This document shows positions 2,061-44,523 of a stretch of DNA of 64,000 bases, piece after piece. Each line of letters starts with the position of its first letter. Position 1 is the stretch's first letter. Source of the DNA: an uncultured Gammaproteobacteria bacterium. GTDB lineage: Bacteria; Patescibacteriota; Microgenomatia; PFEM01; JAPLYW01. The notes under the pieces are model-generated. The model had not been told where the DNA came from. It did not search any database and saw nothing but the letters and a program-made list of their open reading frames with translations. Location of the stretch: NCBI GenBank assembly GCA_965230945.1, contig OZ246397.1, forward strand, positions 438,284-502,283, given 5' to 3'. The position numbers and the translations under genes are program-made.

Positions 2061-2417
2061 ATGGCTCTGTCCTCAAAAGAAAGACTTACTTCTGAATACA
2101 AAGGGGAACAAGTTCCCATCGTTGAAGTTGGAATTCCGCCTGAAATAGAGTCAAATAAATATCTTAAAGAGGTTAATAAAGAAGTTTCTCTATCTCAAAA
2201 GGTAAGAGATAAGTCTGGACAAGTGGTAATGGATAATGCGACTCCTAAAGAAAAAATAACTGTTACTTTGCCCTTAACTGAGCTTGAAATGAACAAAGCT
2301 CTGCATTTGAAAGTGATTTATTCTTTACGTTGGTTGGCGGAATGGACGAAAAGATTAATAAAAATGGTAGGAAGTAAATTTGACTATCGTCATAAGATGG
2401 AAGGAGTAAGAGCATAA
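2061..2417 (+). CDS. hypothetical protein (118 aa)
   Basis: ORF sits immediately upstream of the ATPase gene on the same strand, with a 3-nt gap. Confidence 0.4.
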   Translation: MALSSKERLTSEYKGEQVPIVEVGIPPEIESNKYLKEVNKEVSLSQKVRDKSGQVVMDNATPKEKITVTLPLTELEMNKALHLKVIYSLRWLAEWTKRLIKMVGSKFDYRHKMEGVRA

Positions 2418-2420: not shown

Positions 2421-4748
2421 ATGGAACAATCAAGAGCCCTAATTTCTAATCTTCAGCAAGGGGTACTAACCTTAATAATTGCACTGCTAGTCTTGATCGC
2501 TTTATTTATTTTAAGCTATATTTTTGTTTTATGGTGGCGCCATCATACAAGAGAGGAAAAATCGCTAGATTATGTTTTACTTCAGGTAGTTGTTCCTTTT
2601 GATAATGAAATTAAGATTGATGCGGCTGAACAGATGTTTGCCTCCTTGTTTTCTATAAAAAAAGGAGGTGTGTTAAGTTTTTTGCGCTTACAACCTCATA
2701 TTACCTTTGAAATTGTCGCCAAGCATGAAGATATTCGTTTTTATGTTTCTGTACCTTCCAGGTTAAAGGATATGGTAGAAAAGCAGATAAATGGGGCTTA
2801 TCCTGATGCTGAAATTTTAGAAGTACCAGAATATAATCTTTTCTCTGAAGATGGCAGGGTTGCTTTTACGGAATTTAAGCTAAAAGAATCAGCTTACTAC
2901 CCCATTAAAGTTTACAAAGATTTGCCTACTGATCCGCTTTCTTCCATAACTACCGTTTTGGCTAAGATGGGGCCAGAGGAAGGAGCGGCTATTCAGATTT
3001 TGCTTTCTCCGGCCGATAAAAAATGGCGAGTAGGTGGCAGGGATTATATAGCTGGGATTAAAAAAGCAGAATCAGATCTTAGTAAGGCTAAATTTAAGGT
3101 TGATGCTAAAGCTCTTGAAGCTATTGAAAATAAATGTAGCAAGCCTGGCTTTAGCACGGTCATAAGAATTGTTGTTTCTTCGCCGAATGAAAGAATGGCT
3201 AAATCTCATCTGGATAATATTAAGTCTGTTTTTGAGCAGTTTTCTTCTGACCTAAATCGTTTTGGCAAAAGGAGAATTTGGTGGAAGACTGGTTTTATGG
3301 TTGATTTTATTTACCGTTATCAGCCGATGTTTAGAAATAAGACGATCCTTAATTCTGAAGAGCTGGCTACCGTTTTTCATTTTCCCAACAAACAGGTGGA
3401 AACGCCCCATATCCATTGGCTTTATTCTAAAAGAGCCCCAGCCCCGATTAAGATTCCTAAAGAAGGTTTATATTTAGGTAAAAGTACCTATCGGGGAGTA
3501 AGTAAACCCGTTTATCTTTCTGATGATGATCGACGTCGCCATCTTTACATTATTGGCAAGACAGGGACAGGGAAAACAGAAATTTTAAGAGATTTAATTC
3601 TTCAAGATATTAAGGCAGGAAGAGGAGTTTGCTTGATCGATCCTCATGACTTAGCAGAAGATTTGTTGGCCTATATTCCCCCTGAGCGAGCTGAAGATGT
3701 TATCTACTTTGATCCTTCAGATACGCAAAGACCGATGGGATTAAATCTCCTTGAGGCCTATGATGAAGAACAAAAGCATATGGTTACGACCGCAATTATC
3801 AACTTAATGTATAAACTCTACGATCCTTATAAAACTGGTATCATCGGGCCTCGTTTTGAACATGCCATTCGTAATGCTATGTTGACGGTGATGAGCGAGA
3901 AAGGAAGTACCTTTATTGAAGTCGTTCGCTGTTTGACTGATGCTAATTTTGTTCAAGAATTACTGCCTAAGGTTAAAGATCCAATTATTCGCAGATACTG
4001 GACTGATCAAATTGCCCAAACTTCAGATTTCCATAAATCAGAAGTTCTTGATTATATTGTTTCTAAGTTTGGTAGGTTTGTGACCAACAAAGCTATGAGG
4101 AATATTATTGGCCAGTCAAAATCAGCTTTTGATTTTCGTAAAGTTATGGATGAGGGTAAAATTTTAATTATTAATCTGGCTAAAGGTAAGATTGGTGAAG
4201 AGAATTCTAGCTTTCTAGGGTTGGTGCTTATTCCTAAGATTTTGGCAGCGGCTATGTCTCGAGCTGATGTTCCTGAAGAGCAAAGAAAAGATTTCTATTT
4301 ATATGTTGATGAGTTTCAGAATTTTGCCACTCCTGATTTTGCTCAAATTCTTTCTGAAGCCAGGAAGTTTCATCTTAATTTAACGGTAGCCAATCAGTTT
4401 ATCGGTCAGATGGATGAAGAGGTTAAAAACGCGGTTTTTGGTAATATTGGCAGCTTAGTTGCTTTTAGAGTGGGGGTTACCGATGCTAACTATTTACAAA
4501 GAGAATTCCAGCCAGTTTTCGGTGAAGATGATCTTTTAAATATTGAAAGATTCCATGTTTACATTAAAACCATTGTTAAGAATGAACCCGTGCCTGCTTT
4601 TTCTATGGAATTAACTAAAGATATGGAGCAGATGAAAAAACTAAGAAATCCAAAATTAGCCGAGATGATAAAAGAACTTTCCAGATTAAAGTATGGGGTT
4701 GATAGAGAAGTAATAGAAGCTGAAATTAACCAGCGCGCTAGACTTTAA
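2421..4748 (+). CDS. Membrane-anchored FtsK/HerA/VirD4(TraD/TraG)-like P-loop ATPase (type IV secretion / DNA-translocation-type coupling ATPase family)
   Basis: N-terminal TM helix (LTLIIALLVLIALFILSYIFVLWW). Walker A is YIIGKTGTGKTE and Walker B is LYVDEFQNFAT. The protein is clearly paralogous along its whole length to ORF 40695-42872. Confidence 0.6.
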   Translation: MEQSRALISNLQQGVLTLIIALLVLIALFILSYIFVLWWRHHTREEKSLDYVLLQVVVPFDNEIKIDAAEQMFASLFSIKKGGVLSFLRLQPHITFEIVAKHEDIRFYVSVPSRLKDMVEKQINGAYPDAEILEVPEYNLFSEDGRVAFTEFKLKESAYYPIKVYKDLPTDPLSSITTVLAKMGPEEGAAIQILLSPADKKWRVGGRDYIAGIKKAESDLSKAKFKVDAKALEAIENKCSKPGFSTVIRIVVSSPNERMAKSHLDNIKSVFEQFSSDLNRFGKRRIWWKTGFMVDFIYRYQPMFRNKTILNSEELATVFHFPNKQVETPHIHWLYSKRAPAPIKIPKEGLYLGKSTYRGVSKPVYLSDDDRRRHLYIIGKTGTGKTEILRDLILQDIKAGRGVCLIDPHDLAEDLLAYIPPERAEDVIYFDPSDTQRPMGLNLLEAYDEEQKHMVTTAIINLMYKLYDPYKTGIIGPRFEHAIRNAMLTVMSEKGSTFIEVVRCLTDANFVQELLPKVKDPIIRRYWTDQIAQTSDFHKSEVLDYIVSKFGRFVTNKAMRNIIGQSKSAFDFRKVMDEGKILIINLAKGKIGEENSSFLGLVLIPKILAAAMSRADVPEEQRKDFYLYVDEFQNFATPDFAQILSEARKFHLNLTVANQFIGQMDEEVKNAVFGNIGSLVAFRVGVTDANYLQREFQPVFGEDDLLNIERFHVYIKTIVKNEPVPAFSMELTKDMEQMKKLRNPKLAEMIKELSRLKYGVDREVIEAEINQRARL

Positions 4749-4792: not shown

Positions 4793-4864
4793 GGGCCTGT
4801 AGTTTAACGGTTAAAATGGGATTCTTATAAAGTCCAGTAGAAGGTTCGACTCCTTCCAGGCCCA
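4793..4864 (+). tRNA. tRNA with anticodon UAU (Ile, AUA-decoding type)
   Basis: Manual cloverleaf: acceptor GGGCCTG/CAGGCCC; D-arm gttt-aacggtta-aaat with G18G19; anticodon stem ggatt/agtcc with loop cTTATaa (U33 present); T-arm gaagg-TTCGACT-ccttc; discriminator A. Confidence 0.55.
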
Positions 4865-4941
4865 CTCTAGCTTTTTTAATTTTAGACTTTGGTGTTTTAA
4901 TAGTCTTGACTCTTTGGGTTTCTTTCGGATAAAATAAGCTT

Positions 4942-6132
4942 ATGGAAAAGATACAGCGTCCTTTGGCTGATCGTATTCGTCCCCGAAAACTTGCTGAATT
5001 TGTCGGCCAGGAACATTTGGTGGGCAAGAAGGGGTTGATTCGTCAACTGATTGAGTCTGACCAAATTCCTTCAATGATCTTTTGGGGACCTCCAGGATCA
5101 GGAAAGACAACTTTGGCCCGAATTATTGCCGAAGCAACCCAAAGTCACTTTTTGTATCATTCAGCTGTGGCCACTACCCTTAAGGATGTTCGTGAAGCAG
5201 TTGGGGCGGCAAAAGAAAGACTTCAGGCTTACAACAAAAAAACGATTTTCTTTTTAGATGAAATTCATCGTTTTAACAAAGCACAACAAGATGCCTTTTT
5301 ACCTCACGTTGAAACTGGTACGATAATTTTAATTGGGGCGACAACGGAAAATCCTAGTTTTGAAGTCATCGGGCCCTTGCTTTCTCGGAGCCGTGTTTTT
5401 GTCTTAAACCAACTTTCAATTGAAGAATTGAAGATGATTATTAAAAGAGGCCTGAAGGAATTAAAGGTGACCATGGAACCAAAAGCACTTCAGCTTCTGA
5501 TGGATTTAAGTAATGGCGATGCACGAGTATCCTTAAACGCGATTGAGATTGCCGCTTCGACTTTGAAAAGAAAGAAAAAGATAAGCTTTTCCTTGATAAA
5601 AGATGTTTTCCAGAAAAAATCTCTTTTTTACGACCAAGGAGGGGAAGAACATTACAACACTATTAGCTCTTACTTGAAAAGTATGAGGGCTAGTAATGTT
5701 GATGCCGCTTTGTATTATCTTGCCCGTATGGTTGAGGCAGGGGAGGACCCAAAGTTTATTGCCAGAAGAATGGTGGTATTTGCTTCCGAAGATGTAGCCT
5801 CTCCAACTGCTTTAGTGGTCGCTAACGCTGTTTTTAGAGCCTGTGAAACTGTAGGCTACCCAGAATGTCAGGAAAACCTGGCTGCTGGTACTGTTTATCT
5901 TGCCCAAGCTCCTAAAGACCGTAGGGCTTATAACGCTTATATGAAAGCCTTGGATGATGTCAAAAAATTTGGCAACCTTCCCATTCCTCTTAATTTAAGA
6001 AATCCTGTCACAAAATTGATGAAGAAAGTAGGATATGGGAAAGGATATAACAAATATACCAAAGATGATTTACTACCAGAGAAATTAAAAGGTAAAAAGT
6101 ATTATAAGGGTAATGATAGTAGCAGTAGATGA
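4942..6132 (+). CDS. rarA: Replication-associated recombination protein A (AAA+ ATPase RarA/MgsA)
   Basis: N-terminus LADRIRPRKLAEFVGQEHLVGKKGLIRQLIESDQIPSMIFWGPPGSGKTTLA is the RarA signature with Walker A; length 396 aa. Confidence 0.85.
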   Translation: MEKIQRPLADRIRPRKLAEFVGQEHLVGKKGLIRQLIESDQIPSMIFWGPPGSGKTTLARIIAEATQSHFLYHSAVATTLKDVREAVGAAKERLQAYNKKTIFFLDEIHRFNKAQQDAFLPHVETGTIILIGATTENPSFEVIGPLLSRSRVFVLNQLSIEELKMIIKRGLKELKVTMEPKALQLLMDLSNGDARVSLNAIEIAASTLKRKKKISFSLIKDVFQKKSLFYDQGGEEHYNTISSYLKSMRASNVDAALYYLARMVEAGEDPKFIARRMVVFASEDVASPTALVVANAVFRACETVGYPECQENLAAGTVYLAQAPKDRRAYNAYMKALDDVKKFGNLPIPLNLRNPVTKLMKKVGYGKGYNKYTKDDLLPEKLKGKKYYKGNDSSSR

Positions 6133-7096
6133 AACAGGTAGTTTTAATGAAAGCGGTTCTTTGGAATACGGCTTAGTTACTCTTGTTACAGTTACAGACA
6201 ATGAATGGAAGAAGTTCGTAAGACTAATGGATGGGTTATATCCTAATGGCTGGAAAGAAATAAAAGGAACAAACATTACAATTGAGAACCGGCAAAAAAT
6301 CTTAAAATATATTGGCAAAAAACAAGAAATTAGATACACTTCATTCCTATGTGATTTAACACCTGGTACTGATTCGTGGGTTAATTGGCATAAAAACGAA
6401 CAAGTTAAAAAAGTTGAGAAGTCAATTATATTGGTTAAAGAAAAACAAGGACACCCAAACCTAATCAGAGAATTAGAGTTGATTAGAAACCAAATCCGTA
6501 ACCAATCTGTAGGTGATTATTCCAAGTTTATAATGATTTTTGAGCTGTATGTTCAATGGCAAAGATTTTTCCAGTTTGACTATGTCTTTACTCATCCTAC
6601 TAATGACAGTTGGGAAATAAGACACATAGTAGATACACAAAATAAACCAGATAAGTTTAAATGGCTATTAAAAAGTATGTTGAATTTAACTACCAGTGAG
6701 CTTAACCCAGATTATGGAATCTTTTCTCCAAAAGAATGGCCAGCCAGTCATCCGTTCAATAAAATATATGGGGTGGAAGGACAGACTCATAGATTAAATG
6801 CTAAGCTGTTTTATAAAAACTTTAAGATTGGCAATGAGCTTCAAGATTTAGAATTGTTACTACCAGATTTAATAGGAAACTCTATCCATAAATCAATTAA
6901 ACACAGTAAGAATAAATCGTGGTTAAAATTGTTAAAAAGGTTGAAAAGCAACCGTTCTTTAACCATTACAAATAAAGTTTATGGTAACAATCATCAGTAT
7001 TATTTAATTAGAGGCTTTGACAGATTACGCTCCAAAAAATCTGTTAATCCAGTCCTAAAAGAGCATTGTCTATTGATGTCAAAAATACAAAAATAA
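6113..7096 (+). CDS. hypothetical protein, possibly DUF3800-like
   Basis: N-terminus MIVAVDETGSF resembles the DESG start of DUF3800 proteins; otherwise unrecognised. Overlaps the rarA stop by 20 nt. Confidence 0.35.
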   Translation: MIVAVDETGSFNESGSLEYGLVTLVTVTDNEWKKFVRLMDGLYPNGWKEIKGTNITIENRQKILKYIGKKQEIRYTSFLCDLTPGTDSWVNWHKNEQVKKVEKSIILVKEKQGHPNLIRELELIRNQIRNQSVGDYSKFIMIFELYVQWQRFFQFDYVFTHPTNDSWEIRHIVDTQNKPDKFKWLLKSMLNLTTSELNPDYGIFSPKEWPASHPFNKIYGVEGQTHRLNAKLFYKNFKIGNELQDLELLLPDLIGNSIHKSIKHSKNKSWLKLLKRLKSNRSLTITNKVYGNNHQYYLIRGFDRLRSKKSVNPVLKEHCLLMSKIQK

Positions 7097-7261
7097 AAAT
7101 AGTTTTTGATTATTGAGGCTGGAAATGAGATTGAGAAATCCATACAGGTATATTATTCTAATTAAAGTGCGGGTATGTGGTAATATAAAAAGGACAATAT
7201 GGTGAAAAAGATAGTAGTTAGTTTAAGGAAATGAGAATAAAGGAAAAATTTTGAGGCAATA

Positions 7262-7729
7262 ATGAAACAAAGACCTATTTTAGGCAAAGATATTCCGTGG
7301 AGTGTTATAGATGGAGAGCTTTGCCGTGTTATACGGTTTACTCCTTTTGCAAAGATAGAAAATAAAAAAGTTCGGGCAGTTGCTTCATATACACCATATG
7401 CTTTCCTAACAGTGGAGTGTAAAAAATTTAAACAGAATGCAGACTTATGGGTTACACATAAAATAGATTTTATAAATCTTTCGGAAGCCTTTGGGCAAAG
7501 AAAAATAAAAGATGGAGAGGAAGTACTGATTATTTGGTCAGTCAATCATTATAAATATAAATTGTACAAAATTTTCTCCTTTATTTTTCCAAAGATATGG
7601 GTAATGATTTGTCCCAAAAATGCCTATGAAATAGAAACTAATCCAAATTTCCGACCGGAATTGACAGGTGAGGCACGATTTTTAGCATTCAGACCCATCA
7701 AAGAGTGGGAGCCAGAAGTAATGGGTTAA
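7262..7729 (+). CDS. hypothetical protein (155 aa)
   Basis: ORF only; an alternative antisense ORF 7162-7545 overlaps it, so the coding strand is uncertain. Confidence 0.3.
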   Translation: MKQRPILGKDIPWSVIDGELCRVIRFTPFAKIENKKVRAVASYTPYAFLTVECKKFKQNADLWVTHKIDFINLSEAFGQRKIKDGEEVLIIWSVNHYKYKLYKIFSFIFPKIWVMICPKNAYEIETNPNFRPELTGEARFLAFRPIKEWEPEVMG

Positions 7730-7971
7730 AGAATTCAATTTTTCTTAAATTCCCGCAAAAACTAGTCCGAACATCGTCCACAATAGGGAGCTGGGAATTT
7801 TGAGCTTTTTTCGTGTCCTGATTATTTCCTGCTCAAAATCTTTATTTTTCTCAAGAGCCTTGATCAAGTAATAGTAAGATGTGTCAAGAACGCCCTGTTG
7901 TAAAGAGCTTTCACATCAAAAGAAGGATTGAAAAAAATAGAAACTTAGTTTCTAGACAAACCGGAGAAAAT

Positions 7972-8000
7972 AACCCCGAAAGGGGTTGTTTTTTTTATTT
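7972..8000 (+). terminator. Rho-independent terminator (aaccccgaaaggggtt + T-run)
   Basis: GC hairpin AACCCCGAAAGGGGTT followed by TTGTTTTTTTTATTT. Confidence 0.5.
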
Positions 8001-8139
8001 AATAATTATTGATGCTAGCTATTGAGAAAAGTTAAGAAGAGAGAAGAACCATCAGAACATCAATTCTAAGGTTTTGAGAGGTCATTAGACGAGGCTGAGT
8101 TTTGGTTCTAAAGACCTTAAAAATCCGAGAGGTAGTAAG

Positions 8140-8550
8140 ATGGACATGATAACCTCCAAGTGGTATATAATAAAGAAAATGGCTGAAAAAAAGAAAGAAA
8201 CATTTAAGTTCTATATGTCTGAGGGAGAACTTAAAAAAGCAGGCACTTCTTCTTCTGAAGTCTTTGAAGCTTTTTTTGGAAAAAATAAGAAAGAGGGTAA
8301 AGCAATGATGCTTATAAGCTGGCTAATTATTTCAGTGGCTTTAATCTCGGTCTGGGAGGTATTGCTACGTATCATCCCTGAAGGATGGGCTTTGGTTCCT
8401 GTAAATATTTTCTGCTTCCTGGCAAGTTTTACGATTGGAGCTTTCGGTTATTTGCCAGCATTTCGTCAGTGGATGAAACCTCTATTAGCTTGGTTCTGTG
8501 CTTTAGCATTATGGTTCCTAGTATTTGTAGTTGTTCGTAGTCTATTTTAA
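8140..8550 (+). CDS. hypothetical membrane protein (3 predicted TM)
   Basis: ORF with hydrophobic helices; first of a co-directional run of five small ORFs. Confidence 0.4.
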   Translation: MDMITSKWYIIKKMAEKKKETFKFYMSEGELKKAGTSSSEVFEAFFGKNKKEGKAMMLISWLIISVALISVWEVLLRIIPEGWALVPVNIFCFLASFTIGAFGYLPAFRQWMKPLLAWFCALALWFLVFVVVRSLF

Positions 8551-8629
8551 AGCTTAAAAAAGGAGGCCAAACTAATTTTGATGATTGTAAGAATATCGCG
8601 ACTTACAAGGTGGGAGAGAAAGAGTTGTA

Positions 8630-8869
8630 TTGAGTATGGCTAAAAAAGTTACCATCATTGCTTTAATAATCGGTTTAGCTTTTTTGGCCTACTGGTTTCA
8701 ATATAGGCTACAAAAACTAGAGGAAGCCTCTAAATTATTAAAAGAAACCTTGGGGGTTTGTGAAGTTGTGCCGAAGGCATATGATAGATATATGCCCACT
8801 ACCAAAGGTTATGAAGATGAACTTGATAGGTGTGCCAACACTTATATTAAGCTAAAAAACAGATTATAG
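8630..8869 (+). CDS. hypothetical small protein with N-terminal TM helix
   Basis: ORF preceded by AAAAAGGAGG; single TM followed by a soluble tail with 2 Cys. Confidence 0.35.
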   Translation: MSMAKKVTIIALIIGLAFLAYWFQYRLQKLEEASKLLKETLGVCEVVPKAYDRYMPTTKGYEDELDRCANTYIKLKNRL

Positions 8870-8920
8870 GAATTTTTAAAAGGAGGCTCAAGCCTTGAGG
8901 AGGAAGGAGGTGAAAAAATT

Positions 8921-9451
8921 ATGAGAAAGATTTTAGGGTCACCTTTTAAAATTCTGGACATTAGAGGATTTTTTATGAATAAGATTTTTGCCTATATAGA
9001 TTCTCATATCATTTGGGTTGTTATTGTGGCTCTAATGTTTTGGTTTGCTGGATGGTTTGTTTCTGGTTTTCCTCCACTTGGTCTCTTATTCCTTGTTGCT
9101 TTTGGGATTTACTTTTTTAGAGGGTTCAGGCGTGAGATGAAGGCGGGCATCCAAATCCAGCGTACAAGATTTATTCATACGGGTGTTGTAAAATTCATCT
9201 TATTCCTTTTTTTGTTTTTTGTCCTATCCGGAATCGCAAAAATAATAATGCTATTCACCTTATGGACGTTTGTTTGGATTGGTAGAGGGGCAGAAGTAGC
9301 AGACGAGGCCGTAATGCATAATCAAAAACTAGTGTATGGCCAAACAGACATTTTCATCGCATTGCCAGTTGTAGTAATTTTGACATTGCTGTACCTGCGA
9401 TACTTAAAACAAAAGAGGTCGGCAGAAGAATTGAGTGTAGGCAAAAATTAA
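8921..9451 (+). CDS. hypothetical polytopic membrane protein (about 4 TM)
   Basis: Strong SD (GGAGGAAGGAGGTG) 8 nt upstream of the ATG; hydrophobic segments. Confidence 0.4.
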   Translation: MRKILGSPFKILDIRGFFMNKIFAYIDSHIIWVVIVALMFWFAGWFVSGFPPLGLLFLVAFGIYFFRGFRREMKAGIQIQRTRFIHTGVVKFILFLFLFFVLSGIAKIIMLFTLWTFVWIGRGAEVADEAVMHNQKLVYGQTDIFIALPVVVILTLLYLRYLKQKRSAEELSVGKN

Positions 9452-9475
9452 CACATTTTAACCGCTGGGTTTTAA

Positions 9476-9952
9476 TTGATTTTATGTCGGCTAGAATTAA
9501 AATCAGAATTATTGAAAAATTTAATGAATATACTATATATTACAAAAGGTATTATCGGGGGGTTTTTATTAAAAATATTTCCTTCCTGGGGCCCTAAAGG
9601 CGTCATAGATACACAAATTATTGTTTATAATCGTCTAAAAAGAAAGTTTCCTAAGACGTCTGAAAACGATATATTAAATTCTCTTATAATGTCCAGAGTA
9701 AAAGCTTCTCCACGTGTCGCTTCCTTGCAAAACGAATATATTCATTACGAGTTGCTTTTGCAAAATCCCGATAAAACACTTGAAGATGTAATTTGGGAGA
9801 TAATCAATTATGAATATTTTGAAAGCAGAAAGGATTATTTGAAAAAGAAAATTCCTTCTAAGACCCTAATAGAAGCTAGATTAGAAGCGAAGCAATATAT
9901 AAAGAATAAAGTTACAAAAATAAAAAATGAGCAAAGACTTAATAAAATATAA
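9476..9952 (+). CDS. hypothetical soluble protein (158 aa; start may be a downstream Met)
   Basis: ORF only. Confidence 0.3.
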   Translation: MILCRLELKSELLKNLMNILYITKGIIGGFLLKIFPSWGPKGVIDTQIIVYNRLKRKFPKTSENDILNSLIMSRVKASPRVASLQNEYIHYELLLQNPDKTLEDVIWEIINYEYFESRKDYLKKKIPSKTLIEARLEAKQYIKNKVTKIKNEQRLNKI

Positions 9953-10268
9953 AAATATTGCTTCTGTAATATCAATCGTAATGCTCCTCTTGGCTATACC
10001 TACTTTTTGGCCTTACGGATATTACATTCTTTTAAGATGGATAATAACTGCCAGTGCTTTATTTTTAGCTTGGATTGCATACGATTTAGAGAAAGTATTG
10101 TGGGTGGTCTTGATGGGCTTGGTGGCTATATTATTTAATCCTCTAATTCCCATTCATCTAGCCAAATCAGGTTGGGTTCTTATTGATTTTGTATCAGCTA
10201 TTCTTTTCTTTTTAGCTGCCTATTCTATAAAAACTATAGCCCACAAGCATAGCGGAGAGGAAGAATGA
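9927..10268 (+). CDS. hypothetical membrane protein (3-4 TM)
   Basis: ORF with hydrophobic helices; overlaps the previous ORF by 26 nt. Confidence 0.35.
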   Translation: MSKDLIKYKNIASVISIVMLLLAIPTFWPYGYYILLRWIITASALFLAWIAYDLEKVLWVVLMGLVAILFNPLIPIHLAKSGWVLIDFVSAILFFLAAYSIKTIAHKHSGEEE

Positions 10269-10423
10269 GTAAAAGAACAGCAAGCGGGAAAAAGCCAAGA
10301 AAATAGTACAACAACCTTTTTGACAAAATTATCTAACTTTATTCAAGAGGGAAAAAATATTTAAAGCAAGAGACGATGGGTGGCAGGACAGTAAGGTAGA
10401 AAATTTACCACCCATCGATTGGC

Positions 10424-11146
10424 TCATTCTAAATTTATCTTTTTAAAACATCTAAGACCGTTTTTATCGGTTCCCGCTTCAACAAAATCTTCAAAGATAA
10501 CCGGAATAACTTCCTTAAGTTTCATAAGTAAATCTCCCGTTACCTGACGGATTTCCCAATGAGCTGCTTTTTGAGTACGCATTTCAAAGATATGTCGCCA
10601 TTGTCTAAAATTGGCAGTAACAACAATATCAGCATTAATGGCGATAGGAAGTATTTGCCGAGCGTCTTCCGGAACCCAACCAGCTTTTCTCAAACCTCGA
10701 TAATACATCTCCACCTTATGCAGCATATCTACCATTGACATTCGTGTATCGTCCTCAAGTAGAACAACTTCATATGCGTTTTTATGAGGGGGTACAGTAC
10801 AATGTAGCTGGAACTTTTCTAAATCAACTTTTTTACCCGCGTAGTCAACATATCTCGTTGATTCCTGAGAGAAAGCACAGATGCGATGTCGAACCATTTC
10901 GTGAGTAAAGCCACGGGAAACGTCAAGGAACTTTACACTTAATGTAGAGTGCTCGATTACGCTTTCATGACCTCTTTTAATAACCGTCCTGATGAATCTA
11001 TTTGCCGATTCTTCGGTAATTTTATTTTTTTCAGAACGATAACAAGTTCTACCTGCGCTTTCCAGCCTTAATAGTTGAGCCTTAAGTTCACTTTCCGATG
11101 TAAGAATAACAGAAAGGCCTCTTTTTACAACTTCCATTACCATCAC
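10424..11146 (-). CDS. thyX: Flavin-dependent thymidylate synthase ThyX
   Basis: ThyX motif RHR-x7-S is present (HEMVRHRICAFSQESTRY); length 240 aa. Confidence 0.8.
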   Translation of the reverse strand: MMVMEVVKRGLSVILTSESELKAQLLRLESAGRTCYRSEKNKITEESANRFIRTVIKRGHESVIEHSTLSVKFLDVSRGFTHEMVRHRICAFSQESTRYVDYAGKKVDLEKFQLHCTVPPHKNAYEVVLLEDDTRMSMVDMLHKVEMYYRGLRKAGWVPEDARQILPIAINADIVVTANFRQWRHIFEMRTQKAAHWEIRQVTGDLLMKLKEVIPVIFEDFVEAGTDKNGLRCFKKINLE

Positions 11147-11273: not shown

Positions 11274-12137
11274 TTAAAGTTCTTCTATTTTGATTTTCTT
11301 TTCTCCGGTTTCTTTAATAAGATCAAGATATTTTTCCGTGGTAGAGAGACGTTTATGACCAACTAGTTTTTGGATAAGAACTACAGAAGCTCCATTGGCT
11401 AGTTGGTGGGCAATAAAGGTGTGTCTGAGATCATTGATAGTCGCATCTTTAATTTCCGCTTCTTTAAAATAACGGCCAACAATAGTGCGAATGTTTCTGA
11501 CCAGAAATGGTCTTCCAGTTTTAGTTATAAAGATGTTTTTGGTTTTAGTTTTAAGCCTGAATTCCAACCAGCGTTCTAGTGATTTTTTGGCTGATTGGTT
11601 CAAGACGATAGCTCTTTCAGGTTGAGATTCATAAGCTTTAATTTTAAGTTGATTGTCTTTAAAATCAGCAAGTTCTAATCGAGCGAGTTCTCCAATACGG
11701 ATACCGGTTTGAAGCAATAATTCAACGACAGTGGAGATGCGGACATCATTACGGACAGCATCTCTTAAAGCTCGGTATTCCATCTGACTTAGAATTCGAG
11801 GAGGTTTAGCTTCATAACTAGGATATGTGATTGATTCAGCAGGATTATTGTCAATGATATTTTGGCTATTTAAATATTTGAAAAAAGACTTGATTGAATT
11901 AAGTTTTCTGGAAGCTGATTTAGGTAGATATTTATTGTAATTAAGGTATTCTTTAAAGTCTTCAATATGTTCAGGGGTAATAGAAGTTGCTTGAGTAATT
12001 TGTTTTTTACCCAAAAATTCAATAAACTGACTAAGGTCATTGCCATATGCTAAAATAGTAGAAGACGATTTACCTTGTTTTTTTAAAAAGTCGATAAATT
12101 TTTTATAGGCAGTATTCAGAGATTTATCATCAGCCAT
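11274..12137 (-). CDS. Tyrosine site-specific recombinase, XerC/XerD family
   Basis: N-terminal SAM-like segment (ILAYGNDLSQFIEFL) and a C-terminal catalytic region with R...H..R...Y arrangement (LRHTFIAHQL...GHKRLSTTEKYLD); 287 aa. Confidence 0.75.
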   Translation of the reverse strand: MADDKSLNTAYKKFIDFLKKQGKSSSTILAYGNDLSQFIEFLGKKQITQATSITPEHIEDFKEYLNYNKYLPKSASRKLNSIKSFFKYLNSQNIIDNNPAESITYPSYEAKPPRILSQMEYRALRDAVRNDVRISTVVELLLQTGIRIGELARLELADFKDNQLKIKAYESQPERAIVLNQSAKKSLERWLEFRLKTKTKNIFITKTGRPFLVRNIRTIVGRYFKEAEIKDATINDLRHTFIAHQLANGASVVLIQKLVGHKRLSTTEKYLDLIKETGEKKIKIEEL

Positions 12138-12230: not shown

Positions 12231-12605
12231 ATGTCAAATAAAAAGTTAAACTTACTTATACGCAGCAGGCTAGTTCAGATAGTAATTATTTTTATCGGTA
12301 TTGGTCTTATAGTCAACTTGTCAAAGGATATCATAGGGCTTTTAAAATCAGCTGGGGAATTAAAGCTAACCGAGCAGAGGGTAGGGGAGGTAAAGGAAGA
12401 AACCCTTAGCCTGAAACAAAAGAAAGAATATTATCAATCAAATGAATTTATTGAAGAAATGGCGAGAAATAAACTTAATATGGCCAGAGAAGGAGAAACG
12501 GTTGTTATTCTACCGCCAAATATAAAAGAAGTTTTGGGTTATCAAGAGTCTACTCTTCCTGAGTATATTCCCAATTGGAAACAATGGTTTAATCTATTTA
12601 GGTAG
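12231..12605 (+). CDS. Septum formation initiator family protein (FtsB/DivIC-like)
   Basis: N-terminal TM, then a coiled coil, then FIEEMARNKLNMAREGETVV resembling the FtsB/DivIC C-terminal motif. Confidence 0.5.
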   Translation: MSNKKLNLLIRSRLVQIVIIFIGIGLIVNLSKDIIGLLKSAGELKLTEQRVGEVKEETLSLKQKKEYYQSNEFIEEMARNKLNMAREGETVVILPPNIKEVLGYQESTLPEYIPNWKQWFNLFR

Positions 12606-12928: not shown

Positions 12929-13000
12929 GGTAGGGAGTAGACTGGTGTCTTGGAACGTTTCATAAGCGTTTTTTAGTGGGTTCGACTCCCACCCCTACCA
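12929..13000 (+). tRNA. tRNA with CAU anticodon (second copy; D-arm atypical)
   Basis: Acceptor ggtaggg/ccctacc; anticodon stem aacgt/gcgtt with loop ttCATaa; T-arm gtggg-TTCGACT-cccac; discriminator A. The D-arm is short, so this call is less secure. Confidence 0.45.
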
Positions 13001-13003
13001 CAA

Positions 13004-34911: not shown

Positions 34912-35610
34912 ATGCTTTTAGAATTGCTAAATAGTCAAGATCTGGGTTCTTTAGGACCAATTAATTTTTTAAAGCATGCTCTTTATTGGGCCGTAAATCA
35001 AGGTTTCCCTTTGGAATTATTAGTTTTAATTTTACTTTTACCCTTGGCTGTTTCCTTGGTAGTCTTGGTGAGATATCTTGTTGGTATCCAAGGTTTAGGT
35101 ATTTTTACTCCGGTAATGATGGCGGTGGCTTTTTTAAGTATTGGTCTTATTCCAGGTATTTTGCTGTTTTTAATTATTTTACTGATTGAAATTTTTGCTA
35201 TTTATCTTTTAAAACGGTTCAAAATTCATTTTTTGTCTAAAATGTCATTAGTTTTACTTATTATTTGTTTTTGTTTTTTTCCGCTTTTAGTTTTGTTTCA
35301 AAAGTTTAATTTTCAGGTATTATTTAATTCCTCATCAACTTCTATTTTAGTTTTAATTCTTTTGGGAGAAAACTTAGCCGAGGCTCAATTTAAAAAGCCG
35401 CCTAAAAAGATAACCATGGTTACAGCAGAAAACTTAGTTTTAGCGGCCTTATCTTTTGGGGTCTTAAACTCTTTCTTTTTGAAAAAAATGGTTATCTTTT
35501 ACCCAGAATTAATAGTTTTAATAGCCTTGTTTATCAACATTATAGTGGGTCGTTTTACTGGTTTACGTCTTTTAGAATATCGTCGTTTCAGAAGATTATT
35601 AAGGAAATAA
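34912..35610 (+). CDS. Polytopic (about 7TM) membrane protein, likely partner of the downstream ATP-grasp enzymes
   Basis: 232 aa made almost entirely of hydrophobic helices; 1-nt gap to the next gene. Confidence 0.4.
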   Translation: MLLELLNSQDLGSLGPINFLKHALYWAVNQGFPLELLVLILLLPLAVSLVVLVRYLVGIQGLGIFTPVMMAVAFLSIGLIPGILLFLIILLIEIFAIYLLKRFKIHFLSKMSLVLLIICFCFFPLLVLFQKFNFQVLFNSSSTSILVLILLGENLAEAQFKKPPKKITMVTAENLVLAALSFGVLNSFFLKKMVIFYPELIVLIALFINIIVGRFTGLRLLEYRRFRRLLRK

Positions 35611-36903
35611 ATGGCTAAAGCTTCTTCTATTCTAGGTCAAAACGCTCGTAATTATCTCTTTTTATCTTTGAACAAAAAAGAGGGCCGAAAAATTGCCAAT
35701 TCCAAGCTTTTAACGAAAAGAGTTTTAAAAAGGCATAATTTGCTAAGTCCGGCTGTTTTGGCTGTTTTTAGGACCGCTAAAAAGATTAATAATTTTGCCT
35801 GGGAAACTTTACCTGATAATTTTGTTTTAAAACCCTCAAAGGGATCTGGCGGAGAAGGAGTAGTTATTGTTAAAAAGAAGGCTAAATGGGCGGGGGAATG
35901 GTATTTAATGGATGGTTCCATTATTAATACTCAAGATTTAAAATTCCACGCTTTAGAAATTCTCTCTGGTAGATTTAGGCTTTATAATGTTCCTGGTGTA
36001 GCCTTTGTTGAGGAACGAATAAAGATTCAAAAAATTTTTAGCAGATATGTTTATCATGGAACGCCTGACATTAGAGTTTTGGTTTTTAATAAAGTTCCAG
36101 TGGCAGCTATGCTGCGTTTGCCAAGCAAAGAGTCTAAAGGTAAATCAAACCTTCATCAAGGAGCTATTGGAGCAGGTATTGATTTGGCTACTGGTATCAC
36201 TACCTTTGGCATTGTCAATGGCCTTTTTGTTAAATATATTCCCGAAACTAAAAGAAAGATTAATGGTCTAAAAGTCCCTCATTGGGATAGGATTCTAAAG
36301 CTGGCCGTAAAAGCTCAAGAAGTGGTTCCGTCTTTAGGCTTTTTGGGTGTTGATATCATTTTAGATAAGGAGAGAGGGCCAATGATTTTGGAGTTAAATG
36401 CCAGGCCTGGCTTAGAGATTCAGAATGCCAATTTATCTCCTTTAAAAAAGAGGTTGGAGAGGGTGGAAGGCTTAGAGGTAAAAGATGTTGATCATGGGGT
36501 TAAAATAGCCAAGGCTCTTTTTGCAGAAAGATTTGCTGATCGAGTTATGGCTGAAGAAGGGATAAAAATAGTTAATGTCTGGGAAAAGATAAAAGTTTTA
36601 TCTGAAGATAAGGAAAAGCATGAATTAAAAGCCAAAATTGATACTGGTGCTTGGCGGACATCAATTGATGAGGATTTAGCTGAAAGATTGGGCCTGCTTA
36701 CGCCAAGTAATATTTTATGGTCTAAGGTCTATAAAAGTGGTTTAGGCATACAGGAAAGAGAGGTTATTGGTCTAACTTTTTATTTAGCGGGCAGAAGAAT
36801 TAAGACTATTGCCAGTGTTGCCAAAAGGGCCGATTTAAGAGCCTCGATGATTATTGGCCGTCGAGACCTGAGAGACTTTTTAATTAAAGCCAGAAAGTTT
36901 TAA
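35611..36903 (+). CDS. ATP-grasp (alpha-L-glutamate-ligase-like) enzyme fused to a C-terminal retropepsin-like aspartyl protease domain
   Basis: N-terminal 300 aa are ATP-grasp-like (KPSKGSGGEGVVIV, ELNARPGLEIQN). The C-terminal 130 aa carry an aspartyl-protease motif KIDTGAW. Confidence 0.55.
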   Translation: MAKASSILGQNARNYLFLSLNKKEGRKIANSKLLTKRVLKRHNLLSPAVLAVFRTAKKINNFAWETLPDNFVLKPSKGSGGEGVVIVKKKAKWAGEWYLMDGSIINTQDLKFHALEILSGRFRLYNVPGVAFVEERIKIQKIFSRYVYHGTPDIRVLVFNKVPVAAMLRLPSKESKGKSNLHQGAIGAGIDLATGITTFGIVNGLFVKYIPETKRKINGLKVPHWDRILKLAVKAQEVVPSLGFLGVDIILDKERGPMILELNARPGLEIQNANLSPLKKRLERVEGLEVKDVDHGVKIAKALFAERFADRVMAEEGIKIVNVWEKIKVLSEDKEKHELKAKIDTGAWRTSIDEDLAERLGLLTPSNILWSKVYKSGLGIQEREVIGLTFYLAGRRIKTIASVAKRADLRASMIIGRRDLRDFLIKARKF

Positions 36904-36904
36904 A

Positions 36905-37828
36905 ATGGTTAAAATATTAATTCTCATTGGCGGTAGTGATCGCCCCATTAAACATTTTGCCCAAGTAGGGGAAAAGCTTGGCTGTCAGGTTAAGACGGCT
37001 TCTTTTAGTCGTTTGAACTATTCAACTTTAGATAAAGAATTTATCTTAAAAGTTGATGATACAGATATAGCTGATTTTGATATTGTTTATATCAGATTGG
37101 TAGGTAAACATTTTGAAGAGGTAGCTTTAGTTTCGCAATACGCTTATGAGAAAAATATTCCTTTGATCGACCGGATTTTTACCAAAAAGGGACTGACCCG
37201 TTTACCTATTCCCAAGTCAATTGAAGCTAAACTTTTGTTTCAAGCAGGTTTGTCGATACCTAGGACCTTTTTTGGTTCACTAAAACAAATAGAAAAAGAG
37301 GCACCTGAGCTTTTTGGTTTCCCCTTTGTTATTAAAAGCACCACCGGCAAACAAGGTCGTTCTGTTTGGTCACCAAGAAACGGCAAGGAATTGGAAAATT
37401 TGCTAATAGAACTTCGTAGATTGAAGAAAAGGAAAAGTAAGAGAGTTAGGGGTTCTTTTATTGCCCAGGAATTTGTCTGTGTCTCTCAAAGACATCGCTT
37501 GTTCGTTTTAGGTGGTAGGGTAGTTGGAGCCATAACCAGACCAACTCGCTGGCGAAAAAGATTTTTAGGTAAAGATGCTCCAGAAGGTAAAAGAGAAGCT
37601 TTGTTTGTTATTCCTAAAGAAGAAAAAGAAATGGCTTTACAAGCAACTTCTGCTTTAGGAGTAGATATTGCCGGAGTTGATCTTATTAGGGATGATAAGA
37701 CAGGCAAACTTTTTGTTTTGGAAGTTAATTCTGCTCCTCGTTGGGAATCAATTAGAAAAGACTGTCATCTGAATATTGAAGAGGAAATTATTAAGCTTTT
37801 AATCAAAAGAGCAAAAAAGAATAATTAG
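36905..37828 (+). CDS. RimK-like ATP-grasp ligase
   Basis: ATP-grasp layout with FVIKSTTGKQGRSV and LEVNSAP motifs; 307 aa; starts 2 nt after the previous stop. Confidence 0.65.
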   Translation: MVKILILIGGSDRPIKHFAQVGEKLGCQVKTASFSRLNYSTLDKEFILKVDDTDIADFDIVYIRLVGKHFEEVALVSQYAYEKNIPLIDRIFTKKGLTRLPIPKSIEAKLLFQAGLSIPRTFFGSLKQIEKEAPELFGFPFVIKSTTGKQGRSVWSPRNGKELENLLIELRRLKKRKSKRVRGSFIAQEFVCVSQRHRLFVLGGRVVGAITRPTRWRKRFLGKDAPEGKREALFVIPKEEKEMALQATSALGVDIAGVDLIRDDKTGKLFVLEVNSAPRWESIRKDCHLNIEEEIIKLLIKRAKKNN

Positions 37829-39076: not shown

Positions 39077-39104
39077 TTGACAATCAAGATGTAGTAGGAA
39101 TAAT

Positions 39105-39105
<1 letters not shown>
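39077..39105 (+). promoter_or_regulatory. Putative sigma70-type promoter for the 16S rRNA
   Basis: TTGACA (39077-39082), 16-nt spacer, AATAAT, ending at the mature 16S 5' end. Confidence 0.4.
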
Positions 39106-40559
<1,454 letters not shown>

Positions 40560-40694: not shown

Positions 40695-42872
40695 CTATCT
40701 TCTATATTGGTATTGTCTGTGTTTAGAGGCGTATTTGTAGGAATAGCGATCGTTGGATACTTTAATAACTTTGTCTCGATTTTGATTGAAGGACTTAGGT
40801 AGAGGTAGGGTATAGGCAAAAAAGGGTCGAGAAGTTAAGTTATCGACGGCGAGTTTGAGAACAATCTGGAAGTTGGAAAGACCTACTAAATTCTTCTGAG
40901 TAAAGATACTTCCAAATTCTTTTTCTAAGATATAGGCATCTTCAGCGCCGACGATAAAAGAGATTAAAGTGCCGGCGTTGCCAAAAATAGCTTTCTGAAC
41001 CGGTTCATCAATTTGGGCAATATATTGATTAGTCAGGCAAAGGTTTAATCGATATTTTCTAGCTTCAGATAAGATTTTAATAAAAGAGTCAGTAGCAAAG
41101 TTCTGAAATTCATCAACATACAAATAGAAATCTCTGCGCTTTTCTTCAGGCATATGGACTCTGCTCATAGCCGCTAGTTGCAATTTACTGATAATCATGG
41201 CTCCTAAAAGAGCCGCATTATCCTCACCTAATTTTCCCTGAGAGAGGTTGAGAATTAAAATTTTACCTTCATTCATAATTTTTTCAAAATCAACTGTTGA
41301 GTGCGGCTGACCAATAATATCTCTAATTGAGGTTGAGGAGACAAACTGACCAACTTTGTTTAAAATAGGGGCGATGGCTTCCTGTTGAAGGCGGTCAGGC
41401 ATTCTTTCAAATTCTTTAAGCCAGAAATTCCTTAAGACTGGATCATGGAGGTTTCCCACTATTCTTTGGCGAAATTTCTTATCAGTTAATATTCTGGGGA
41501 TGTCAACCAATGTACTTCCAGGAGTTTTAACCAAAGTAAGCAAGGTATTACGGAGGATATGTTCCAGCCTGGGACCCCAGGAAAAAGAATAAAGTTTATG
41601 GAAGATAGAGATAATACCTGAGGCAATTAGCTCTCCCTGGGAAGGGTCTTTAACCTCTAAGATATTAATAGAAAAAGGAAAGTCTTTATTAGACGGGTCG
41701 AGATAACAGACTTCGTTGATGCGATGAGAGGGAATGTAATTGAGAAGAATCTCAGAAAGATCACCATGAGGATCAATTACCGCCAATCCACGCTTTTTCT
41801 TCATGTCATCAATGGCCATATTAGCGATCAAAGTTGATTTACCAGTACCTGTCTTGCCGATAACATATATGTGGCGGCGACGATCTTTTTGTTTAATGCC
41901 GAAATTGGTTAGTCTGTTTTTGAATTCAGTTTTGGCAAAAAAATTGATTTCTTGCTTTTGTTCTTCAGTAAGATTAATAGCTGCTGGCAGATTTTCTGGA
42001 GCCTCAGTTAATACTTGTCTTCCCCAAGAAATATTAGGGATCTTGGTTTGATCACTGGGCAGGTGCCATAAGGTAGCTAATTCTGAAATGGTTAATACTT
42101 GGTATTTGGGAATAGATTCAGGCGATCTTTTAAATAAAGACTGAATAGATTTCTTTTTTCTTAAGATGGATGGTTTTTTAAAGCCAAGACTGTTGCCATC
42201 ACCTTTAGTAAAGATGTCTAAACTGCCGACAATAGATTTTAAAAGGCTAGGATTGGAGGCAGCTACTCTGATACCTACAATTAGCCCTTGTTCCTGGATT
42301 TTTTGTTTAATGGCCGCTTCTCCAGGTAGGGGACGACGTTCATTTTCACCAGCCTTAATACCTTCATCAATAGCCTTTTGGCCTTGTTTCTGCCAGCCAG
42401 AAGGGGCTTTTTGGATAATAAATTGGATGATGCTTTTATCTTCTTCATTTCCTTTTGACATGACTGCTAAAAGATTGCTTAAAGGGTCAACATCAACAAA
42501 CTCTTTAAGAGTTTTTAAAGGGTAAAAGAAGCTCTTTTCTAAAATTAATTGGCCAAAATAAATTTTTTCTGGATTCCAATCTTGTAAATAATTGGTAATT
42601 TTATTTAAGACCGCCAAAGGATAAGCAGCTAGGATTTGGCTTTCAAAATAGGGAAGCAAAGATTTATCTAGAACGACGCAAAAATGAATTTGTTGCTGTT
42701 CACAAACAATCTCTAAAGTCAAAGATTCTGGTTTTTTACCTCTTAATTGCTCAAAAAAGCTAGGTAAAGAAAGAATTTTGGTGAATCCAGAAAACAAAGT
42801 ATGGGCATTTTCTGGAGTATACTCATTTTCCCTAGGAACCTTTATTTCTAAGATAACTTTTTCTTCAGGCAT
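40695..42872 (-). CDS. FtsK/HerA/VirD4(TraD/TraG)-like P-loop ATPase, paralog of 2421-4748, no N-terminal TM
   Basis: Walker A HIYVIGKTGTGKST and Walker B LYVDEFQNFAT; collinear similarity to the first copy in both the N-terminal and ATPase regions. Lies between 16S and tRNA-Ile on the opposite strand. Confidence 0.6.
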   Translation of the reverse strand: MPEEKVILEIKVPRENEYTPENAHTLFSGFTKILSLPSFFEQLRGKKPESLTLEIVCEQQQIHFCVVLDKSLLPYFESQILAAYPLAVLNKITNYLQDWNPEKIYFGQLILEKSFFYPLKTLKEFVDVDPLSNLLAVMSKGNEEDKSIIQFIIQKAPSGWQKQGQKAIDEGIKAGENERRPLPGEAAIKQKIQEQGLIVGIRVAASNPSLLKSIVGSLDIFTKGDGNSLGFKKPSILRKKKSIQSLFKRSPESIPKYQVLTISELATLWHLPSDQTKIPNISWGRQVLTEAPENLPAAINLTEEQKQEINFFAKTEFKNRLTNFGIKQKDRRRHIYVIGKTGTGKSTLIANMAIDDMKKKRGLAVIDPHGDLSEILLNYIPSHRINEVCYLDPSNKDFPFSINILEVKDPSQGELIASGIISIFHKLYSFSWGPRLEHILRNTLLTLVKTPGSTLVDIPRILTDKKFRQRIVGNLHDPVLRNFWLKEFERMPDRLQQEAIAPILNKVGQFVSSTSIRDIIGQPHSTVDFEKIMNEGKILILNLSQGKLGEDNAALLGAMIISKLQLAAMSRVHMPEEKRRDFYLYVDEFQNFATDSFIKILSEARKYRLNLCLTNQYIAQIDEPVQKAIFGNAGTLISFIVGAEDAYILEKEFGSIFTQKNLVGLSNFQIVLKLAVDNLTSRPFFAYTLPLPKSFNQNRDKVIKVSNDRYSYKYASKHRQYQYRR

Positions 42873-43009
42873 ATTCTTCTACTAAACTAGTTTTTATTAT
42901 AGCAGATTTTCTATTAATATGAATAGTTTTAACTTCTGTCCTATATCTTAGGTCAGGGTTAGTTTTATGCTGTTATTTTACCTAAATTTATGTTAAAATT
43001 TCCTTGCTT

Positions 43010-43081: not shown

Positions 43082-43090
43082 ACTTGTTTA

Positions 43091-43253: not shown

Positions 43254-43259
43254 GTTTAA

Positions 43260-44467: not shown

Positions 44468-44523
<56 letters not shown>

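Follow-up and report, generated by a model that had tools for sequence, protein, structure and literature searches.

For nucleotides and lipids, Patescibacteria rely on host cells. A survey of the phylum lists 5,713 homologs of VirD4-like type IV coupling proteins (T4CPs) in 2,918 genomes, i.e. 1.96 per genome, beside 2,474 virB4 genes; only 148 of the T4CP homologs are placed near virB4, relaxases are rare (109 in 103 genomes), and exaptation of the T4CP homologs is raised as a possibility (Quinonero-Coronel et al. 2025, PMC12102498). The essential type IV secretion system (T4SS) cluster of S. epibionticum has no recognizable coupling protein or relaxase (Wang et al. 2023, PMC10633639), and a cultivated Patescibacterium takes up host RNA by an unresolved route (2026 preprint, 10.64898/2026.06.21.733656). 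In the Sulfolobales the VirD4-like ATPase CedD is essential for DNA import, some of its orthologs are without a membrane anchor, and its gene (saci_0667) appears to lie apart from cedA1/A2 (saci_0567, saci_0569) and cedB (saci_0748) (PMC11823120). The present analysis concerns two paralogous ATPases, termed A and B, encoded in a 64,000-nucleotide stretch of a patescibacterial genome (contig OZ246397.1, positions 438,284 to 502,283; hereafter the window), of which a preliminary description had been made from the DNA alone.

On balance, A (membrane-associated) and B (soluble) appear to be native motors for translocation or coupling that resemble coupling proteins and are not part of a conjugative element. 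The family to which they belong is most likely identical with the VirD4-like T4CP set of the published survey, as inferred from counts and annotations.

Sequence Comparison of the Two Paralogs

The alignment of A and B is collinear from the N-terminal domain to the C terminus with 36% identity and 57% positives over 707 residues. The BLASTP E value of 3e-148 over this length places the similarity far beyond chance and confirms the paralogy that had been proposed. All of the motifs quoted in the preliminary description are present in both proteins. In the N-terminal domain these are VLLQVVVPFDNE in A and VILEIKVPRENE in B, with a further pair formed by ITFEIVAKHEDIRFYVSVP in A and LTLEIVCEQQQIHFCVVLD in B. 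The Walker A motif reads GKTGTGKT in A (residues 379-386) and GKTGTGKS in B (residues 339-346), and the Walker B segment DFYLYVDEFQNFAT is identical in the two. A-type and B-type are used here for separate orthologous groups of the family, and in an alignment of 92 A- and B-type sequences the Walker A motif, the Walker B motif and ~70 other columns are invariant. Orthologs are 70-87% identical within the A-type group and 54-83% within the B-type group, compared with ~35% between A and B in the 92-sequence alignment, which indicates that the duplication is old.

A single N-terminal transmembrane helix is predicted in A, where the Kyte-Doolittle hydropathy reaches a maximum of 3.2 at residue 18, compared with a maximum of 1.34 anywhere in B. 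The transmembrane calls on A, B and their orthologs are made with a hydropathy window only. In the AlphaFold2 model of A described below the N-terminal helix comprises residues 2-41. The claim that only A is anchored holds, and the same split extends to the orthologs, with an N-terminal hydrophobic helix in 118 of 120 A-type sequences but in only 1 of 120 B-type sequences. Basic residues come after the transmembrane helix, so that by the positive-inside rule the ATPase of A is predicted to be cytoplasmic.

Assignment of the Motor by Sequence Profiles

The motor occupies the C-terminal two-fifths to one-half of both proteins and is a P-loop ATPase of the FtsK-HerA superfamily. Pfam TrwB_AAD_bind is matched by A (25.2 bits) and B (36.3 bits) above its cut-off of 20.5 bits, DUF87 only marginally above its cut-off of 23.2 bits by A (23.7 bits) and B (34.1 bits), and TraG-D_C is above its cut-off of 22 bits in B (23.5 bits). 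Sequence searches of the PDB, with the single protein or with the 92-sequence profile, match TrwB and DotL only, TrwK not being among the hits. Public annotations label relatives as [quoted passage not shown]. The preliminary description had called both proteins FtsK-HerA/T4CP-type ATPases, and the hidden Markov model (HMM) scans support this, indicating that an assignment nearest the VirD4/TraD/TrwB coupling proteins within the FtsK-HerA superfamily is essentially right.

The more specific models score lower. Pfam PF02534 (T4SS-DNA_transf) is not listed for A or B. Of the NCBIfam models, SXT_TraD gives 51.9 bits (cut-off 366), the CD1115 VirD4-like model 29.9 and 37.9 bits (cut-off 250), TraD_Ftype 13.5 bits (cut-off 521), and the CedD model NF053655 20.5 bits for A and 43 bits for B (cut-off 600). 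The HerA model NF040819 gives 14 bits (cut-off 970), and no NurA-like neighbor is seen.

The N-terminal ~300 residues of both proteins are assigned to Pfam PF26449 (DUF8128) in the precomputed annotation of the exact window proteins. PF26449 was not listed by the local Pfam scan of A and B, the Pfam copy used for which may not include this model. The name DUF8128 was not found in any paper of the searched literature.

Predicted Structure and the Fold of DUF8128

The AlphaFold2 model of A, built from the 92-sequence alignment, has a predicted local distance difference test score (pLDDT) of 89. When the full-length model is compared with the PDB using Foldseek, the best matches are TrwK/VirB4 of plasmid R388 (E 1e-16 to 1e-13), with both domains aligned. 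TrwB comes next, aligned over the ATPase part only (target TM-score (TMt) 0.60-0.65, E ~5e-13, root mean square deviation ~5 Å), followed by HerA. Between Walker A and Walker B the ATPase of A contains an all-α insertion, with helices at residues ~449-563 of the model.

The N-terminal domain was also modeled alone as a 301-residue query (pLDDT 89, predicted TM-score 0.88), and its 14 best fold matches in the PDB are all TrwK/VirB4 chains (E 4e-8 to 4e-5, probability 1.0, query TM-score (TMq) ~0.5). These alignments extend over ~365-400 columns and are read as covering the N-terminal part of VirB4, the output being without target coordinates. The next PDB matches are oxidoreductases resembling the berberine bridge enzyme, with E values of 2.5e-4 or higher. 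Matches of the domain among the viral structures of BFVD include two phage G proteins, gp156 (TMq 0.71) and the VirB4-like gp155 (E 5e-10). Sequence homology of DUF8128 to solved structures was looked for and rejected, the PDB profile search giving noise only (E ≥ 0.14), as was a sequence kinship with gp155, for which hhalign of the family aligned the P-loop alone. Because the sequence profiles fail to detect it, the relationship between DUF8128 and VirB4 is one of fold.

In the models, DUF8128 has a fold like that of the VirB4 N-terminal domain, which would make A and B VirB4/VirD4 hybrids in architecture. The predicted order of parts is an optional membrane helix, the VirB4-like N-terminal domain, and a motor resembling that of coupling proteins with its all-α insertion. 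The fold of DUF8128 is new here; a VirB4-like N-terminal domain had not been foreseen in the preliminary description.

A Conserved Small Gene Upstream of A

The two small open reading frames (ORFs) upstream of A, together spanning 1536-2417, had been put forward as possible partners. This is upheld for the one adjoining A (2061-2417), which is 43-45% identical to the ORF abutting or overlapping the 5' side of the A orthologs in two loci (L009 and L010). With an iterated HMM it is found directly upstream of an A-type ATPase in 41 fetched loci, and none of its 433 database relatives has a Pfam domain. The encoded protein has no transmembrane segment and is composed of a variable N-terminal half, a conserved LPLTELE motif and a strongly amphipathic C-terminal helix, SLRWLAEWTKRLIK, with a hydrophobic moment of 0.61. 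In several other loci there are comparable small ORFs, the products of which terminate in a helix that is Trp-rich or basic. In two different sequences (L078, 227-2770, and P0264) the partner is fused in frame to the N terminus of the ATPase and replaces the transmembrane helix, a Rosetta-stone fusion that speaks for the two being physical partners. No further fusions came from an HMM search of 390 family proteins, P0264 itself, although visibly fused, probably being lost to the biased-composition filter. ORF 2061-2417 is accordingly described, for the first time here, as a conserved putative partner of A. B has no upstream partner gene.

The more distant ORF (1536-2018) is not conserved and was rejected as a partner. 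It has no upstream counterpart in L009 or L010, phmmer finds it among the fetched loci only in contigs of the same organism, and no Pfam, NCBIfam, PHROG or PADLOC model matches it.

Phage and Defense Relatives

The family is matched by PHROGs phrog_5156 (E 6e-97), and tblastn identifies full-length homologs (20-23% identity, 70-87% coverage) in Bacillus phage G (gp156), SPO1-like phages (gp27.4), Geobacillus phage TP-84 (ATP06113) and Deep-sea thermophilic phage D6E. The hhalign alignment of the family with gp156 covers 638 columns, including the N-terminal domain, with a probability of 100% and an E value of 2e-46. Beside the homolog in phage G (L093, 2327-6469) is gp155, a VirB4-like ATPase (P-loop_TraG, AAA_10). 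In TP-84 (L092, 4498-7037) an overlapping upstream gene encodes a membrane protein of 126 residues with a weak resemblance to VirB2/TrbC (E 6e-5, below cut-off), and in SPO1 (L091, 3821-9331) the neighbors include a Replic_Relax protein (gp27.3) and an actin-like one (gp27.9). The presence of full-length homologs next to predicted T4SS-like genes in Bacillus and Geobacillus phages is new here and hints at a T4SS-derived module in these lytic phages. In the searched literature no paper dealt with Bacillus phage, VirD4 and VirB4 together.

A defense function was considered and rejected because the matches to PADLOC mad8 (E 1.6e-18) and to HerA models are confined to the ATPase core. A viral origin of A and B was rejected as well, since relatives with the family motifs are carried by only 7 of 2.9 million IMG/VR contigs, all of them matching the ATPase part alone.

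Distribution and Inheritance

At E ≤ 1e-5 there are at least 7,449 relatives of A and at least 6,840 of B. A scan of species-representative genomes gave at least 598 relatives, the best 80 of which are all A-type and are labeled as Shapiro-, Woese-, Levy-, Gottesman-, Roizman-, Davies-, Curtiss- and Collierbacteria, Dojkabacteria/WS6, WWE3 and Saccharibacteria. Many of these 80 carry the label "Gammaproteobacteria", which looks mis-assigned. The DUF8128 profile collects 4,659 cluster representatives at 50% identity, with the domain N-terminal in all 150 listed. An anchor is present in 38 of 54 full-length representatives and absent from the other 16; the anchored form looks to be the general one and the soluble B form derived. 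A third group of the family is longer and anchored, with an insertion within DUF8128. In one contig (L089, 1092-6160) two family ATPases are encoded in tandem with a slight overlap.

The GC content of A and B, both overall and at third codon positions, is typical of the window. A and B are native, vertically inherited members of a family found throughout the Patescibacteria.

Genomic Context of A

The A-type genes have a conserved genomic association, formed by the upstream partner and by a block with a recombinase and a division gene. Of 55 loci in which the downstream sequence extends for 3.5 kb or more, 32 have a convergent XerC/D-type recombinase gene within 3 kb after the A-type gene (23 of the 55 within 1 kb), and in 27 of the 32 the next gene is DivIC/FtsB. 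The conserved order is A-Xer-DivIC-TrpRS-FtsH, and the A-Xer-DivIC block persists into the Dojkabacteria at an ATPase identity of 45-50%, the upstream neighbor there being SmpB in place of ribonucleotide reductase. Judged by synteny, A is part of this conserved block, an observation that is new here. Upstream of the A-type gene a ribonucleotide reductase is found in 16 of 54 informative loci; it is of class II in the window and L009 and of class III in L010. B lacks the Xer/DivIC synteny.

Relative to L009 and L010, an insertion (4942-11146) parts A from Xer and DivIC in the window. It contains RarA/MgsA and ~8 ORFs, most of them without a family match and several predicted to encode membrane proteins. 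The features of A, B and their surroundings are listed in Table 1.

Table 1. Coordinates of the two ATPase genes, their motifs and associated features in the window
Feature	Position	Strand	Remarks
Putative conserved partner gene of A	2061-2417	+	118 residues; stop codon 4 nt before the ATG of A
Paralog A	2421-4748	+	775 residues; membrane-anchored (predicted), DUF8128 and coupling-protein-like ATPase
Predicted single N-terminal transmembrane helix of A	2460-2534	+	Residues 14-38; hydropathy
DUF8128 domain of A	2562-3440	+	Residues ~48-340; PF26449 and domain model
Conserved ELATxxHxP motif of A	3360-3386	+	End of DUF8128; motif
ATPase core of A	3468-4625	+	Residues ~350-735; Pfam, AlphaFold2, motifs
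Walker A of A	3555-3578	+	Within ATPase core
Walker B of A	4290-4331	+	Within ATPase core
XerC/D-type tyrosine recombinase	11274-12137	-	Syntenic neighbor of A-type genes elsewhere
DivIC/FtsB	12231-12605	+	Syntenic neighbor of A-type genes elsewhere
16S rRNA gene	39103-40558	+	Rfam; convergent with B; context only
Paralog B	40695-42872	-	725 residues; soluble (predicted), DUF8128 and coupling-protein-like ATPase
Walker B of B	41091-41132	-	Sequence motif
Walker A of B	41835-41858	-	Sequence motif
Promoter-like site of B	42896-42923	-	TTCATA, 16-nt spacer, TG-TATAAT; consensus match only
tRNA-Ile(GAT) and tRNA-Ala(TGC)	43011-43333	+	Rfam, ARAGORN; tRNA-Ile 43011-43083; divergent from B; open the 23S-5S part

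Position of B in the rRNA Locus

B lies antisense between the 16S gene and the tRNA-Ile/tRNA-Ala/23S/5S part, the gap from 16S to the 23S part being 2.45 kb; Rfam and ARAGORN bear out the earlier observation that this paralog is embedded in the rRNA locus. The promoter-like site is 24 nt upstream of the start codon, within the 138 nt that separate B from the divergent tRNA-Ile, and such sites are no more numerous in the B region than in shuffled sequence. A 74%-identical ortholog (L006, 1985-11209) is also antisense between 16S and tRNA/23S, in a gap that also holds HD and DUF2584 genes. B orthologs of 65% and 54% identity (L007 and L008) are not near rRNA. A functional link between B and the rRNA operon was rejected in favor of a split operon, as among the orthologs checked the arrangement occurs only in L006 and is absent in L007 and L008. 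The position of B between 16S and 23S is probably an incidental by-product of the splitting.

The 23S locus (43387-47483) has a group I intron within the 23S gene (45301-45546) and a LAGLIDADG endonuclease ORF (46428-46901) between the Rfam 23S end (46327) and 5S (47367). In L006 two LAGLIDADG ORFs are located by the 23S gene.

Other Features of the Window

The identified neighbors in the window are ribonucleotide reductase, RarA, ThyX, XerC/D, DivIC, FtsH, DNA-repair genes, MnmA, rRNA, RadA and Rho, which are housekeeping or DNA-repair genes; several small ORFs and an ORF of 703 residues (61849-63960) are without any family match. A tRNA-Ile gene with the anticodon UAU, which is uncommon in bacteria, is located directly after gene A (4793-4865). 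In the segment 12674-13001 a group I intron (Rfam, 87 bits) lies 55 nt upstream of tRNA-Met(CAT) (12929-13001); it may be free-standing or interrupt an undetected RNA gene. A gene for a 7TM_transglut protein is followed by two ATP-grasp genes (ATPgrasp_ST, RimK) at 34912-37828, shortly before mnmA and 16S, a trio that looks like genes of peptide-modification type. On the reverse strand at 53251-63960 are encoded a TPR protein of 673 residues, a giant protein of 2155 residues with LamG, DUF2341, glycine-rich and Ig-like parts, and the 703-residue protein; this cluster may be a surface or adhesion module.

In L007 (9895-13857) a run of genes for topoisomerase I, dCTP deaminase, ThyX and thymidylate kinase is preceded at a distance of 1.7 kb by a B-type ortholog, with three small ORFs, all unannotated, in between. 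With A-type genes often following ribonucleotide reductase, a neighborhood of nucleotide metabolism recurs, the meaning of which is uncertain.

Discussion

A mechanism can be proposed for the two ATPases by analogy with the hexamers of TrwB, VirB4 and HerA. A and B would each assemble into a hexameric ring that spends ATP in handing over or threading a polymer, most plausibly a nucleic acid, on the cytoplasmic side of the membrane. A would be tethered by its own helix and would work with the 118-residue partner encoded 4 nt upstream, the amphipathic C-terminal helix of which would replace the membrane helix in the fused lineage. B, as a soluble protein, would need a docking partner. The host apparatus may be a chromosomal, relaxase-less T4SS-like machine of Patescibacteria encoded outside the window, or there may be none. 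In this scheme we infer ring assembly, substrate, transport direction and any link to a T4SS.

Several observations weigh against the assignment of A and B as motors of coupling-protein type. All of the NCBIfam TraD, VirD4, CedD, CedB and VirB4 models score far under their cut-offs, which places A and B outside these curated families, and compared with the usual two transmembrane helices of coupling proteins A has one and B none. As the preliminary description had noted, no T4SS genes are apparent nearby. The minimal DNA or protein translocation system that it suggested is at most a possibility, the window having no recognizable channel component. Among the ORFs of the 64-kb window that were scanned or Pfam-annotated there is no T4SS structural gene or relaxase, and the precomputed Pfam neighbors of the orthologs in L001-L010 include no channel, pilin, VirB4 or relaxase within 6-10 kb. 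For the remaining 80 loci the screen of neighbors used eleven proteins of the window alone, a set without any T4SS component. The link to a T4SS is therefore drawn from analogy and from distant phage relatives. The t4cp homolog of S. epibionticum, in which the T4SS genes are essential, is far from virB4 and non-essential (PMC12102498). This difference speaks against an obligatory function in common, with the reservation that the loss of one paralog could be masked by another.

Among the alternatives, the most plausible is that A is an analog of FtsK/SpoIIIE, i.e. a DNA pump linked to the divisome or to Xer that acts at the septum, moves or clears chromosomal DNA and perhaps aids Xer dimer resolution. 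This is unlikely, although A is a membrane-anchored motor of the FtsK-HerA superfamily and the frequency of the Xer and DivIC neighbors, in a block reaching the Dojkabacteria, is in its favor. Pfam FtsK_SpoIIIE gives 14.6 and 11.5 bits (cut-off 24) with no γ (winged-helix) domain match in A or B. The Xer gene is convergent and so is not co-transcribed with A, and as the whole block from A to FtsH is conserved the neighborhood may reflect an ancestral order of genes. An ftsK gene is annotated in one Patescibacterium at least (TM7x; PMC10768705), and the synteny is not shared by B.

Next in order, and more improbable, is that A and B are divergent VirB4-type assembly ATPases powering the assembly of a T4SS-like machine, with the fused helix of A, the small partner or both in the role of VirB3. 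The small upstream gene recalls the classical order in which virB3 immediately precedes virB4 and overlaps or abuts it. The structural matches speak for this alternative, with TrwK/VirB4 ranking first for the full-length model and taking the 14 best places for the N-terminal domain, the fold of which is shared by gp155 of phage G. The sequence profiles point the other way, TIGR00929 (VirB4_CagE) giving 16.1 and 12.4 bits against a cut-off of 643, CagE_TrbE_VirB (the Pfam model of the VirB4 N-terminal part) matching neither protein, and TrwB and DotL being found in place of TrwK. The partner is without a transmembrane segment, virB3, virB6 and virB8 are absent from the window and from the annotated flanks of the orthologs, and Patescibacteria own separate, bona fide virB4 genes, those counted in the survey cited above (PMC12102498).

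It is very unlikely that A and B are coupling proteins of an integrated conjugative or mobilizable element. The public annotation as conjugative DNA transfer proteins and the TraG-D_C and TrwB_AAD_bind domains would suit such an element, but no relaxase, VirB4, integrase-bounded island or repeat structure is seen, the neighbors are genes such as ribonucleotide reductase, RarA, MnmA, rRNA and DNA-repair genes, the synteny is stable across orders, the composition is native, A-type orthologs are 70-87% identical, and relaxases are rare in the phylum (PMC12102498). Last in order, and just as unlikely, is a defense (mad8- or HerA-like) or phage-derived origin as prophage relics, to which the PADLOC and PHROGs matches and the full-length phage homologs could point, but the mad8 and HerA matches are limited to the ATPase core, no defense partners or phage genes are nearby, the genes are single-copy in conserved core positions, and IMG/VR holds hardly any relatives.

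With the reading as native coupling-protein-like motors preferred, the family is an obvious candidate for the missing cytoplasmic motor of the patescibacterial T4SS-like machine, because of its approximately two copies per genome, its strong conservation and its kinship with coupling proteins. A more far-reaching proposal, possible but doubtful, is that A, B and the partner form a phylum-wide VirB4/VirD4-hybrid motor exapted for a core task, which might be to energize or gate the entry of host nucleic acid by way of the T4SS-like machine (essential and pilus-bearing), as in CedD-dependent import of DNA, or alternatively to act as a septal DNA pump linked to Xer and DivIC. If uptake were the task, the frequent placement near ribonucleotide reductase and ThyX would fit the feeding of nucleotide pools. 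The question of the motor is made more testable by the division into a soluble form and an anchored one that has its own small partner, by the VirB4-like N-terminal domain, and by the full-length relatives in culturable Bacillus phages (SPO1, phage G). As the family is already catalogued, in a Pfam entry and in the published survey, the novelty is limited to details of architecture and context; the original observation is correct, and the analysis is a useful refinement of it rather than a discovery, with no new system described.

Comparison with Known Systems

FtsK/SpoIIIE and A have in common a membrane-anchored motor of the FtsK-HerA superfamily, and A-type genes adjoin Xer and DivIC; A differs in the single transmembrane helix, the lack of a γ domain and the FtsK_SpoIIIE score below cut-off. 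TrwK/VirB4 of R388 (PDB codes 7o42, 7o43 and 8rtd) is similar to A in its two-domain architecture, in the modeled N-terminal fold and in a small upstream gene comparable with virB3. Compared with TrwK/VirB4, however, A and B have no VirB4 match at the sequence level, an ATPase nearer to coupling proteins and no virB3, virB6 or virB8 neighbors. With TrwB, VirD4, TraD and DotL the two proteins share an ATPase core with Walker A and B motifs and an all-α insertion, whereas the additional VirB4-like domain of ~300 residues and the absence of relaxase or T4SS linkage set A and B apart.

CedD, although archaeal, is likewise a VirD4-like ATPase that is chromosomal and non-conjugative, with a gene apparently separate from those of its apparatus and with orthologs that have or lack an anchor, and it is the best NCBIfam match of B (E 2.4e-11), mainly around the P-loop. 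The homologs of Bacillus and Geobacillus phages resemble A and B over the full length, including the N-terminal domain, and differ in being phage-borne and only 20-23% identical. The VirD4-like T4CPs of Patescibacteria (PMC12102498) resemble A and B most directly, being present in approximately two copies per genome and mostly away from virB4, and relatives of A and B carry PF26449 together with TrwB_AAD_bind. To that survey, which does not describe them, the present work adds the split into anchored and soluble forms, the N-terminal domain, the small partner and the Xer/DivIC synteny.

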